Shown here in pieces: positions 2,914 through 42,121 of a stretch of DNA of 64,000 bases; position 1 is the first letter of the stretch, and the number at the start of each line of letters is the position of its first letter. This DNA is from Podarcis cretensis. Lineage: Eukaryota. The translations under genes and the position numbers were made by a program. The notes beneath the pieces were generated by a model that saw only the letters and a program-made list of their open reading frames with translations, ran no database searches and was not told where the DNA came from. The stretch spans positions 63,178,001 through 63,242,000 of the forward strand of contig OX638150.1 in the NCBI GenBank assembly GCA_951804945.1, written 5' to 3'.

Positions 2914-5357
2914 GGTCTTCTGGGTTGGTGCCTCCGGTAATGGCGGAATTCTTCTGATCGGGAGGAATTTGCCCCGTGGGAATTTGGGTCTGGCCGTCAC
3001 GGTGAAGGCGGAGACCCGCAAAAAATCACAGGCGGGAGAAGCCTGTGAGCGTGGGATTCGGCAGGCACCTTTTGCGCCTCCCCTACTCACGGGGAAACCC
3101 GGTTTCGGGGGTCCGGAGCGACGTGGGGTGAGCGGCGCGGTGCTTCGAATCGTCTGCTTCTTCCACGGAGCGAAGCCGCATAGCTGTTGCCGGAGAGCGC
3201 TGACTTTTTCCTGTGGACAATTTGATTTTAAAGTAATTACCCGTGAGTAGAGCTGAAGCAGAAGAATTGGATTTCTAAAAGTTTAATTTGGTATCGTAAC
3301 GGGGAGGTTCAATACAGGAAGTCCTCCTTCCCCTTTTGTAAATAGACTGAAGCATTGAGGCTGCAAGCTGAAGCCTTGGAAAGCCTATTGTAAAGGACTA
3401 AATTTCCATCGGTAAAGAACATAAAACCCCCCCTTGGAGGCAGGAGAAGAGGGGGGGAAGTTGTGAACTGAATATGCCTGCGGGAGAGAGCGAAGAGAGT
3501 TAAAATACCACCACTCAGACCTTGGAAACGGGCTGCTAGCAGGACTGACGTTCTTTGGAAGGCTCACTGACAGTGATTAGAACGTTCGTTGACAGCTAGC
3601 TAATAAGAGAAATACATTGTTTCTACTGTCTCCGTCTGCTTTTAAAAAGGAGTAAAAGTAACTGAAAATTGAAACTAACTTAATTGTTTGAGCTGTGTTT
3701 AAAAGAGGACATTATTGACTAATATAAACAGAAACTGTTTCCCCCTAGAGGAAGCTTTTGAAACTGTTACAAGAGTTGGGCTGGGGAATTTCCAGCTGCA
3801 AGATAAAAAGCTGTGAGACTCTGGGACTGACCTTGAATCGGTTAAATGTTATGGCAAATGGAAAGGAAAAAAACCGGACTAATCAATTCCTGAAAAAACA
3901 TTAAGGTCTGGGAGGACTTGGCAGCAATCTAGGAGAGCCTCAATATCAGGCCCCCCTGCTTCTTCCGCTATTGCTTTTGTAACAGTATATTTAAAATCAA
4001 TAGGAATGTTGACAGAAGAGGCCTTAGCGGTTGCATTAAGTAAGATAAGTGATTCACTGGAACAGCTTAACAAGAAAATAGATGTGACAAATGTGAAAGT
4101 GGACGCTGCAACTATTAAAATTGACTTAAATACAGAAAGTATAAATAATCTGGGACAAAAGGTGAATATCAATACAGAAACAAAGAAAGTGATACAGGAA
4201 TCTACTTTGATACGGCAGATTGTGGAGGAAGCTAGGGAGAAAGCCGTTGCTGCTGAATGTAAAGTAACACAATTGGTGAGAGAGAGAGTTCCAGCCTTAC
4301 AGAGGCAACTTGATGACCATAAGTCGACGCTTGCTATGATTGAATTTAAAGAAAAACAGACGAATTTGAGGATCAGAGCCCTACCTGAATTGGAGAAGGA
4401 AAGTTTGATAGACTTCTTCACACAGGAATTTGCTGATTTTGGGGACTTGGATCTGGGTCAAGAAGAGTTTAAAACTGTGAGGGCCTTCAGATTTGGAAGA
4501 GGAGGGAAAAAAGAGAAGAACAGAATAAGAGACTGTTGGCACTACCAGAAGAACCTAGAAGTACAACAGCCAAGAGTGGAAATTTTTAAAGACGTCCCGA
4601 AATACCTTTTGGATCTTAGGTCTAACTACGGAGATTTGGTTGGCCTGCTGAGAAGGAATAAAATCATCTTTAGGTGGGAGTTTCCCCAAGGTCTATTCTT
4701 CAGCTTTAAAGGAAGGAAAATAAAAATAAGATCAATAGAAGACAAAGTAAAGTTTTTGTATAAATACGAAGAAGATTTGCAGAAGGGACTTGGAAAAGAG
4801 CTAAGAGCATCGAACAGAAGATCACCAGGTTGATGGACTATATGGAATTGGCGGAAATGACTGGCAGAATCCGAGACCAGGGAGAAGAGTCGGTGGATGA
4901 AGATTGGAAAAAAGTTTAAAGACTATTTATAGAAATATTGTAAAATTAATGAATGTTAGAAAAATGTTGGAATAAAGTTATATGGCTTTAGTAGAAATGT
5001 TATAAGGAATTGGGTATAAATAGATTATTAGAGTATTAAAGGAAAAATAAGGTTAGAATATGTTAAGATAATTATAGGACAGAAAATAGAGGAAGATGGA
5101 AAGGAATTGCTGAAAGAATTAATAGAAGTGGAATACAAAAAGGGAGTGTGAGGAGGTCGTTGAAACAAGTGAATGAAAGATAAGATACTGAAATTGTATG
5201 ATGTGTGCTAAACTGTTTTTGTTTTGTTTTGTTTTGTTTATTGTGTTAGTGTTGTGTAATTTTTTTATATTGTATTGTATTGTCTTTTTTATTATTATTT
5301 CTTTTTTCTTTTTTCTTTCCTTTTTTGTAGTGTTTAAAAGTAATAATTTTTTTTTTA
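2914..5357 (+). mobile_element. Internally deleted L1-clade LINE: CpG-rich 5-prime UTR, ORF1, last ~35 codons of ORF2, 3-prime UTR
   Basis: TSD aaggattactgtc (2901-2913) / aaggattgctgtc (5358-5370). YY1-like ATGGCGG near the 5-prime end. ORF 4006-4833 has a coiled coil, an NLRIRALPE RRM start and an L1 ORF1-type CTD. Confidence 0.8.
3851..4833 (+). pseudogene. L1 ORF1p-like reading frame; 5-prime part disrupted, open from 4006 to 4833
   Basis: Heptad-rich N-terminal half, NLRIRALPE, and IFKDVP...LRRNKIIFRWEFPQGL motifs typical of L1 ORF1. The upstream ATG at 3851 hits an early stop. Confidence 0.7.
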
Positions 5358-11690: not shown

Positions 11691-11871
11691 AGTGGCTTCC
11701 CTTTGATTCCTGCACTTTGAAATGCAAACCTGCCTTTCAATGCAAATGCTCCGGGAGCTTGGCCCAATAAAAAGCCTTTCCTCAGGGAGGTGCCTTTGCA
11801 AAGTGGGGAAGTGAAGGGAGGAAAAGAAAAAAAAACCAAACCACACCACTGACCAAGACGTTCAGGTGAGC
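11691..11871 (+). promoter_or_regulatory. CDX1: CDX1 proximal promoter: two TCF/LEF sites, octamer, TATA-like box, start-site region
   Basis: CTTTGAT 11701-11707, CTTTGAA 11715-11721, ATGCAAAT 11740-11747, CAATAAAAA 11765-11773, GTTCAGGTGAGC 11860-11871. Paired proximal TCF/LEF sites are an established feature of the Wnt-responsive Cdx1 promoter. Confidence 0.8.
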
Positions 11872-11972
11872 AGCTAATCAGGAAGAAGCTGCGAGTGATC
11901 GGCAAGGGCAGGCCTGGGAAGAGGCGGCTGTGGCACAGGGCGCACACATTATGCGCGCAGGGCCACTTGGGG

Positions 11973-12405
11973 ATGATGTATGTGGGATACCTGTTGGATA
12001 AGGACGCCACCAACATGTACCCCAACCCGGTCAGGCACCCCAGCCTGAACCTCAGCCCTCAGAATTACGTGCCGGTGCCCCCTCAGTACTCGGAGTTTGC
12101 CAGCTACCACCACGTGCCAGGGATTAACAGCGATCCTCACCATGGGCAACCCGCGGGCCCCTGGGGCTCTCCCTATACCCCCACCAAAGAGGACTGGCAC
12201 TCCTACGGGGCAGGAGCCCCTTCTTCTGTCGCCAACCCGGGGCAGCTCGGATACAGCCCCCCTGATTTCAATCCAATTCAGCCACCGGGCTCTGGACTGC
12301 TGCCTCCGCCTATGAGCAGCTCGCTGCCCCAGCTCTCGCCAAATGCGCAAAGGCGCACGCCTTATGAGTGGATGAGGCGCCCCGTCCCCACCAACAGCGG
12401 CAATG
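11973..12405 (+). CDS. CDX1: CDX1 coding exon 1 (caudal activation domain plus hexapeptide)
   Basis: Translates to [11 protein letters not shown]...[19 protein letters not shown], with the Cdx N-terminal MYVGYLLDK signature and YEWMR hexapeptide. Tandem ATGs at 11973 and 11976. Phase-1 donor G|GTAAG at 12405/12406. Confidence 0.96.
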
Positions 12406-12804
12406 GTAAGGAACCGTCTCCGTTTCTGTCCTCCTCCTGGCTCTTGGGGAGAGGGCTCGCTTAGGTCACGCAGGAGACCAACTTCTGCTGTTTCTCTGCC
12501 TTTCCTTTTTTCGCTCAGCAAGCCCCACACTAGTTTCCGTTGCTGGTTAGTAGGACTGGGCTGTCAACTTTATAAGGTTTACTCTTCATTATCTTTCGCC
12601 CATCAACTTGTAGACACAAGAGTTTGTGGTCAAGCGGCATTTTAACATGAAAGGGTGCTTGAGAGGTTGGCTGCAAACCCAGGGCCATTTCAGACTCTAC
12701 GCTTAGCAGTTAAACCTGCAGAATATATGCGGTTGGCATGCGTAACCTTCATAGTGTACATGTAGATTTGTCCGTCAGTGAGGTGTGATTGGTGAGAGAG
12801 TCTA

Positions 12805-24143: not shown

Positions 24144-24687
24144 TTGTTGTTGTTTAGTCGTTTAGTCGTGTCCGACTCTTCGTGACCCCATGGACCAGAG
24201 AACGCCAGGCACTCCTGTCCTCCACTGCCCCCCGCAGCTTGGTCAGACTCATGCTGGTAACCTCGAAAACACTATCCAACCATCTCGTCCTCTGTCGCCC
24301 CCTTCTCCTTGTGCCCTCCATCTTTCCCAACATCAGGGTCTTCTCCAGGGAGTCTTCTCTTCTCATGAGGTGGCCAAAGTACTGGAGCCTCAGCTTCACA
24401 ATCTGTCCTTCCAGTGAGCACTCAGGGCTGATTTCCTTCAGAATGGAGAGGTTTGATCTTCTTGCAGTCCATGGGACTCTCAAGAGTCTCCTCCAGCACC
24501 ATAATTCAAAAGCATCAATTCTTCGGCGATCAGCCTTCTTTATGGTCCAGCTCTCACTTCCATACATCACTACTGGGAAAACCATAGCTTTAACTATACG
24601 GACCTTTGTTGGCAAGGTGATGTCTCTACTTCTCAAGATGCTGTCTAGGCCTGTCATTGCCCTTCTCCCAAGAAGCAGGCGTCTTTT
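24144..24687 (-). mobile_element. BovB (RTE clade) LINE, 5-prime truncated, young
   Basis: Intact C-terminal ORF (…DAFELWCWRRLLRVPWTARRSN…GVTKSRTRLND), (CAA)n tail, and perfect 15-bp TSD aataagaataaaaat (24129-24143, 24688-24702). Confidence 0.93.
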
Positions 24688-25307
24688 AATAAGAATAAAA
24701 ATAGTTGATGCTGAATGTCAGTGAATTTTTTACTATCCGCTCAGCAGCAATAATTCTAAAAAGACTCAGCAGCCAGGAGATGCCTTTTTAAATAAATAAA
24801 TAAAGACCTCACTTGATGCCAAAAAGCAATGGGACAATGGCAGTACATGATCTTATTTTTAAGCAAGCTACCGTCTTCTACACAAGCTACAGCTTCTTTA
24901 AAGACAGCATGTGTAGAGTGGACTACAATAGTTTGCCAAGGTATAGGTGACTGGCCAAAAATTAGAATAGCAGCAAACTTTAGCACAAATGGGACAAACA
25001 TCACATGAGACTTCAAGAGTAACACTGCATCCATAAACATTTTGAAACTGCAACCACTCCTTATTTTTTTTTACGCACACAGTAGCACTCATACCTAAAC
25101 TATATGTAATGACGAAGATCATTAGTTTTTAAACAAATCACTAATAGTGATTTACAGGGGCGTAGTGTGGGGGGTACCAGGGGGCTGTGGCCTTGGGAGC
25201 ACAATATTTGAGGGGGCAAAAACCAAGTGCCCCCATGTAGGCACCTCCAGTGCAGCCCAGCCCAGTCCAGTGCTCCTCTCCATCCACAGACTGGGCTCCC
25301 CCCTGCC

Positions 25308-40418: not shown

Positions 40419-40564
40419 GGAAGACCAGAACGAAAGACAAGTATCGTGTTGTCTACACAGACCACCAGCGCTTGGAACTAGAGAAGGAATTCCACTACAG
40501 CCACTACATCACCATCCGGCGGAAAGCAGAACTGGCAGCGACGCTGGGACTCACCGAGCGGCAG
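40419..40564 (+). CDS. CDX1: CDX1 coding exon 2 (homeodomain N-terminal part, 146 bp)
   Basis: Acceptor tttattAG at 40417-40418. Reads (G)[48 protein letters not shown]. Donor CAG|GTTGGT. Phase joins exon 1 correctly. Confidence 0.97.
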
Positions 40565-41917: not shown

Positions 41918-42121
41918 GTGAAAATCTGGTTCCAGAACCGCAGAGCAAAGGAAAGGAAGGTGAACAAGAAGAAGATGCAGCAGCAGACCCAGCCTGCCAG
42001 CACAACCACACCGACTCCTCCAGCAGTTGGCACCCCTGGTCCCATTGGAGGCATCTGCAGCAGCACTACCAACCTGGTTTCCTCATCACCAATGACTATC
42101 AAGGAAGAATTTATGCCTTAA
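41918..42121 (+). CDS. CDX1: CDX1 coding exon 3 (recognition helix and C-terminus, stop TAA)
   Basis: Acceptor tctctgcAG. Reads [19 protein letters not shown]...[12 protein letters not shown]. The C-terminal KEEFxP and downstream SLC6A7 identify CDX1 rather than CDX2 or CDX4. Confidence 0.96.

Follow-up and report, generated by a model that had tools for sequence, protein, structure and literature searches.

The closest described counterparts of the sequence reported here are the conserved inhibitory upstream open reading frames (uORFs) of Hox genes, which have been tested in Hoxa1, Hoxa9, and Hoxa11 (Ivanov et al. 2022, PMC8892498). Both these genes and CDX1 are homeobox regulators of the body axis with a short leader and a conserved AUG 5' of the main ORF, whose context in CDX1 is arguably short of optimal. 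However, as far as the accessible text of that study goes, its uORF analysis was confined to the 39 Hox genes, the main text makes no mention of 'cdx', and CDX1 and CDX2 appear only in a background list (Dataset S3). The ATGs of the candidate Cdx uORFs are further distinguished by A at -3, a stronger context than the 'poor' class of the accessible portions of PMC8892498. Like the start codons of the Hox uORFs, that of CDX1 is conserved over distant vertebrates, as seen in the lizard, human, and dog records described below, and records from eagle and lemming are compatible with this.

A second related group comprises the out-of-frame overlapping ORFs (oORFs), in which a uAUG is followed by no in-frame stop before the CDS and the frame ends inside the CDS, as it does in CDX1; in the parts of the source available, such an ORF is counted in 15.0% of human MANE 5'UTRs, and no CDX gene is mentioned by name (Wieder et al. 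2024, PMC11057154). The class is thus known and common, whereas the CDX1 case adds retention from lizard to human, ATGs beside all three paralogs, and an apparent capture of the start in frogs, and it is this frog capture together with the three-paralog pattern that lifts CDX1 above an ordinary overlapping uORF. New here are the frog start shift, the CDX2 and CDX4 ATGs, and a weak clustering of differences at third codon positions. A third point of reference is delayed reinitiation of the ATF4 type, in which the main start is covered by an inhibitory ORF in another frame, itself preceded by a short uORF. CDX1 shares the out-of-frame overlap but has no preceding short uORF, as the ATG at 11951 is the sole ATG from 11749 to 11972 and no second uORF was found in the transcribed leader. 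The two-uORF switch of ATF4 is therefore inapplicable, and any stress response would have to operate through bypass of the single uAUG. Lastly, a short human CDX1 record (Q14DX0/AAH96249.1) and the UniRef entry A0A2I3T792 begin at the homologous ATG in the same frame, although both are annotated as CDX1 products of a shortened cDNA instead of a regulatory uORF, with no function attached. A search of the open-access literature found no paper on a Cdx uORF and no Ribo-seq, reporter, or protein data on the uATG at 11951, and cdx1 is not named in the supplements of PMC7889888, PMC7949122, PMC4890304, PMC7484617, or PMC11057154. The accessible part of Kozak 1991 (PMC2289952) cites the mouse Cdx1 cloning paper, and the mouse Cdx1 ATG may be tabulated there.

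The window, meaning the whole stretch of 64,000 nucleotides that was analysed, contains CDX1, a gene of gut and body axis, from a squamate (Table 1). Its first coding exon matches the Pfam family Caudal_act (E 2.5e-47), is 91% identical to CDX1 of Eublepharis, and is separated by a 28-kb intron from the homeobox exons that begin at 40419 and 41918. The initial annotation had described an ATG at 11951 with A at -3 that opens 16 codons, runs past both CDX1 ATGs, and stops at 11999-12001, and every element of this description agrees exactly with the letters, including the 25 nt between this uATG and the ATG that opens MYVGY (11951 versus 11976). The uATG, in the context cacattATGcgc, lies 22 and 25 nt 5' of the tandem ATGs at 11973 and 11976 and reads in the -1 frame, so that its ORF conforms to the oORF definition in having an AUG 5' of the CDS, an out-of-frame reading, and a stop past the CDS start. 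Other squamate records also have the doubled Met start. Under the rule given in the available text of PMC8892498, a context with A at -3 and C at +4 is not optimal, yet not 'poor' either.

Table 1. Positions of the CDX1 exons, the overlapping uORF, and neighbouring elements in the window.
Feature	Position	Strand	Remarks
Conserved promoter block	11701..11772	+	Two words taken to be TCF-type sites (11701, 11715), two taken to be octamer-type (11722, 11740), CCAATAAAA (11764)
Conserved leader element CAGGTGAGCAGC	11863..11874	+	Near 5' end of RNA-type contigs; reads G-E-Q in eagle and pig-like records
Out-of-frame overlapping uORF, 16 codons	11951..12001	+	uATG 11951-11953, A at -3, C at +4
Block from uATG to MYVGY ATG, 25 nt	11951..11975	+	Length 25 in 9/11 informative amniote records, 26 in 2
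Tandem main starts ATG ATG	11973..11978	+	G at -3 (1st), A at -3 (2nd); 2nd opens MYVGY
CDX1 coding exon 1 (Caudal activation region)	11973..12405	+	Donor GT at 12406
uORF stop TAA	11999..12001	+	Spans Asp(GAT)-Lys(AAG) codons of main frame; lineage-variable
In-frame Met14 (MYPN)	12015..12017	+	A at -3; 13 nt 3' of uORF stop
CDX1 exon 2 (homeobox 5' part)	40419..40564	+	
CDX1 exon 3, coding part up to stop	41918..42121	+	

Contigs from two of the four sequencing runs cover this exon, with runs X23 and X15 yielding none there. Run X17, from a close relative and RNA by a tool's guess (depth 4-5), gave two pieces that span 11860-12262 and 12234-12410, the latter running up to the exon-1 donor (12410, including 7 loose letters); the contig is identical to the window at 11945-12158 with the uATG kept, and it carries an 11-nt deletion just 5' of the uATG. 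In the putative transcript of this relative, the uATG sits at least 91 nt inside, although contigs cannot show a start site. Run X19, from a distant organism, aligns at 11862-11886 and 12011-12200. In organism G, the two sides of the start align and the diverged middle is of equal length. Three close relatives are unchanged at 11863-12058, but at ~99% identity they carry no weight as evidence of conservation. Measured from the shared leader element, the leader is ~110 nt long in the lizard versus ~73 nt in a pig-like record, while the spacing of the uATG to the start is constant.

Several other features of the leader and promoter were considered. The CCAATAAAA of the promoter block occupies the place of the mammalian TATA-like word. 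The three ATGs of this block lie 5' of the RNA-type contigs, and those at 11722-11746 were rejected as leader uATGs, being situated both within promoter words and 5' of the contigs; the N-terminal 19 residues of eagle record P0011 are nearly the same as those of the window ORF at 11722. At 11764-11772, lizard and eagle have CCAATAAAA-like letters versus a TATA-like word in two mammal records (G-P-I-K / G-P-N-K versus G-A-I-K), and the distance from this place to the shared leader element is ~100 nt in the lizard, ~60 in the eagle, and 45 in the pig-like record. The word ATGCAAAT occurs in the promoters of both CDX1 and CDX4, at the similar distances of -236 and -245 from the start, beside what is presumably a TCF-type word. 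RNA structure around the uATG was rejected, as the leader plus start folds no better than its shuffles (z -1.25), and a small hairpin at the uATG has lost its 5' arm in organism F through an 11-nt deletion at 11934. The same deletion breaks the main frame, which is open from 11853, leading us to reject an in-frame non-AUG extension as well.

Taken by itself, the lizard uATG proves nothing: at least one out-of-frame ATG occurs in the last 60 nt of 59% of 5000 dinucleotide shuffles of the CDX1 leader, or 12% with A at -3, and overlapping ORFs are found in 15.0% of MANE 5'UTRs. The weight of the observation derives from three records that share its position and frame, namely P0301 (human), P0300 (Homininae), and P0371 (dog). 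Distant leaders were read through protein records and gene models, from which the leader bases of birds, mammals, and frogs are deduced. The human record Q14DX0/AAH96249.1 (P0301) and P0300 both start with MRGGPRGHHVCG, and the dog model with MRAGPRGHHVRG, in each case in the uORF frame at -25, that is, 8 codons plus one base 5' of the main start; P0236 agrees with this. The initial annotation had suggested a human CDX1 ATG at -25, and these records bear it out. As the four supporting records would not exist without the ATG, they attest to its presence, not its frequency. Main-frame leader records, which were not picked for the ATG, are free of this selection, and all five long enough amniote ones carry the residue that an ATG requires (Cys at -8 in the eagles P0011 and P0100 and the mammals P0210 and P0211, His at -9 in P0192), each singly leaving the A of the ATG unfixed. 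The lemming model P0199, read in the third frame, is also compatible with the ATG. Among 11 informative amniote records, 9 fit -25, whereas P0192 and the pig-like P0198 fit -26, which is also out of frame, and in one of these two a frameshift follows later in the sequence. With its start at -21, a python model is uninformative on -25. The in-frame Met at -21 (python P0004/P0101; Logan P0184) was not counted as frame capture; the sister record of P0184 has Val at this place, and the Met of P0184 probably reflects a GTG that the gene caller took for a start. Record P0382, of 59 residues, follows the uORF frame from a start 9 nt further 5' (-34) and seems to be without the main ATG, possibly as a decayed CDX1.

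The deep conservation proposed for the uORF as a whole holds for the position and frame of its start, shared with human and dog, but not for its stop and 16-codon length. The stop is absent in organism G and in the mammal records, with the human frame uninterrupted over at least 38 codons. The X. tropicalis cdx1 morpholino target extended by a Lys codon yields an identical uORF stop. Judged from these records, the start of the uORF is conserved from lizard to human while its stop and length are not, and selection seems to act on the start plus a few codons after it instead of on ORF length. The N-termini read MRGGPRGH and MRAGPRGH in mammal records versus MRAGPLGD in the lizard, such that 5-6 of the first 8 residues are identical in the uORF frame versus 1-3 in the main frame. 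When the lizard is set against a two-frame overlay of mammal records over 7 codons, the mismatches number 1, 1-2, and 6-7 at codon positions 1, 2, and 3 (hypergeometric p 0.0005-0.009 for the uORF frame, a value to be multiplied by three because the frame was chosen). On a base of 7 codons deduced across species, this is a hint that the first uORF codons are constrained at the codon level. Beyond the amniotes, residues of fish records (the P0080 cluster and P0058) allow an ATG at -29 or -31 without fixing it, a fish cdx4-like gene has no ATG near its start, and the Xenopus and zebrafish cdx1 morpholino sequences do not extend over -25. Pattern scans gave 3 matches in metagenomes, none of them CDX1, 1 chance match in prokaryote genomes, and 0 in viral sequences.

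Amphibians provide a further perspective upon this site. Among 44 amphibian records, 36 begin with MYV, including those of Gastrophryne and Hyperolius, 1 is partial, and 7 begin with MAVDPLGK-IYV, the latter representing six ranoid species (Lithobates pipiens, Aquarana catesbeiana, Rana temporaria, Nanorana parkeri, Pyxicephalus adspersus, and Mantella aurantiaca) plus 1 additional record. Presumably, the six species form one clade, Natatanura, with Gastrophryne and Hyperolius as near outgroups. In these frogs, the normal Met has become Ile and the protein starts 8 codons upstream at -24, one base off the amniote uATG, while residues 5-7 (P-L-G) are the same as in the lizard uORF. The most parsimonious course of events, we infer, is that the uATG was brought into frame by the loss of one base and the old Met was then lost. 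The homology rests on position and the P-L-G match, the place of the gap not being fixable from protein records, and the frog start could possibly be a new ATG. If the capture did occur, the uATG site can carry initiation.

The other Cdx genes of the same genome carry comparable ATGs. CDX2 has an out-of-frame ATG at -32 that opens 13 codons and overlaps the start; human CDX2, we assume, has an upstream AUG at about the same place. CDX4 has one at -35 that opens 9 codons and stops just before the start, and its ATG, length, and stop are kept in a tetrapod-like contig (L004). Both ATGs have A at -3. The CDX4 leader also has an in-frame ATG at -9 that overlaps the stop of the -35 uORF (ATGA), the corresponding codon in L004 being GTG. 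In the accessible text on X. tropicalis cdx4 (PMC2701559), the two morpholino targets spell out an ATG followed by six codons and a stop codon, the distance to the start not being given. A second Cdx4-like exon 1 (G000:C19:22927011-22930888, minus strand), which lies some 29 kb away from CDX4, has lost its start codon, contains stops and frameshifts, and is split by an AT-rich insertion of ~470 nt; it looks like a tandem-duplicate pseudogene.

For comparison, 44 of 55 SNAG-pattern matches were examined. By eye, 32 of these were classed as chance matches (L026, with an ATG at -41, being a borderline case) and 12 as real starts; one of the 12 was excluded because of a splice acceptor located at -12, and 7 Hox starts were added to give 18 control transcription-factor starts. 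With the caveats that the 60-nt interval was chosen after the data had been seen and that the controls were sorted by eye, an out-of-frame ATG occurs in the last 60 nt of all three Cdx leaders versus 2 of 18 controls (Fisher p 0.0075). None of the 18 controls has such an ATG with a purine at -3, whereas all three Cdx genes have one with A at -3 within 35 nt (Fisher p 0.0008). Shuffled leaders contain an out-of-frame ATG in 59%, 40%, and 79% of cases for CDX1, CDX2, and CDX4, respectively, or 12%, 6%, and 35% with A at -3, and all three paralogs have one in ~18%. CDX2 and CDX4 likely use the kind of brake that is proposed for CDX1. Since the paralog leaders do not visibly align, common descent and convergence of the ATGs are indistinguishable. 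Among the Hox genes, a Hox8-type gene has an out-of-frame ATG at -11 with T at -3 that overlaps its start, and a Hox6-type gene has a 2-codon uORF at -47.

Based upon these features, the ATG at 11951, kept at -25 in lizard, human, and dog, probably acts as a brake through leaky scanning, by which less CDX1 protein would be made. Under the scanning model as presented in the available text of PMC8892498, an AUG in medium context captures part of the ribosomes. A share of the ribosomes scanning the CDX1 leader would initiate at the uATG, translate through the main start codons in the -1 frame, and be lost to full-length CDX1, while the remainder would leak past, so that CDX1 output would be capped. 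The captured share would be set by start-codon stringency, i.e. the eIF1/eIF5 balance, as in the tested Hox uORFs. The earlier proposal that ribosomes starting at the uATG could not reinitiate at the main start stands for either tandem start, both of which are blocked by the out-of-frame overlap, but Met14 could in principle receive reinitiating ribosomes and give a shortened CDX1. A gap of 13 nt is unfavourably short for reinitiation. Met14 might alternatively serve as a leaky start, and it is absent from eutherian CDX1 records. The uORF stop lies 404 nt before the first intron, making mRNA decay via this stop possible. As Cdx2 is unchanged in Upf2-null blastocysts according to the accessible text of PMC9687065, decay through a Cdx2 uORF stop is without support.

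The conserved letters can also be viewed in other ways. They might be kept as a DNA element, e.g. a downstream promoter element or transcription-factor site, of which a GC-rich, NRF1-like half site would presumably be an example, and in this case the ATG would be a by-product and its translational effect incidental. The block does lie ~90 nt into the transcribed region and is flanked by deeply conserved promoter words, the letters directly after the ATG are conserved as well, those encoding Cys and Arg could serve a DNA-binding site, and the spacing slips by one base in two records. Despite this, we regard a DNA element as improbable, given that the spacing is fixed to the start codon and not to the upstream leader element, that A at -3 is compatible with lizard and mammals alike despite different letters preceding the ATG, that a third-position bias is not expected of a DNA site, and that the CDX2 and CDX4 ATGs have unrelated flanks. 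That same third-position concentration (6-7 of 7 codons) is what would be expected if the encoded N-terminus M-R-x-G-P-x-G mattered through ribosome slowing or as a microprotein, and not just the start; the recurrence of Pro5 and Gly7 in the frog extension, together with the human cDNA record and Homininae model that join the uORF frame to the CDX1 C-terminus, is in accordance with a peptide-dependent uORF. Nevertheless, the bias concerns 7 codons whose bases were deduced from the proteins of several species, cDNA artefacts and models projected from them may account for the short-isoform records, and two records shift the frame while the eagle does not fix Gly4. Moreover, the ORF ranges from 16 to at least 38 codons with neither length nor stop conserved, and no family of uORF peptides was found in a representative protein search (3 matches) or in the Atlas. 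Dependence upon the peptide is accordingly a reading to which we give little credence.

It is also conceivable that the uATG is a near-neutral relic, an old ATG persisting in a slowly evolving start region with ample leak-through, the frog start being new and the paralog ATGs chance. Overlapping ORFs are frequent in the accessible data of PMC11057154 (15.0% of MANE leaders), shuffles often produce such an ATG, and a python record with a new in-frame Met at -21 indicates that new starts do arise here. However, with 9 or 10 of 21 bases after the ATG differing between lizard and mammals, the region is not frozen, and among the control transcription-factor leaders such ATGs are nearly absent; persistence without function strikes us as very unlikely.

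Returning to the leaky-scanning brake, a more ambitious version can be entertained, albeit as a speculation that we doubt. The three vertebrate Cdx genes would each have kept an upstream start 25-35 nt 5' of the main one from a single pre-duplication Cdx gene as a family-wide governor of dose, the first codons in CDX1 would be under selection at the peptide level, and natatanuran frogs would have escaped through a one-base loss that made the repressing start the sole start of a CDX1 that is 8 residues longer. Were this the case, a conserved uORF of a body-plan gene would have been knocked out naturally in these frogs, and the clade would amount to a natural experiment on uORF loss. More generally, conservation of such a start-codon brake would mean that Cdx dose is also controlled at the level of translation, and would carry the Hox uORF result over to the ParaHox genes. 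It would also flag the human CDX1 leader, where a variant could raise protein output.

Several minor observations concern the annotation of this region. In a turtle model (P0129), CDX1 is fused to the neighbouring proline transporter, which is probably an annotation artefact. Elsewhere in the window, a 316-codon open frame with a coiled-coil look at 3883-4830 resembles what we take to be a LINE ORF1 remnant, and another retroelement-like frame lies at ~24150-24720.
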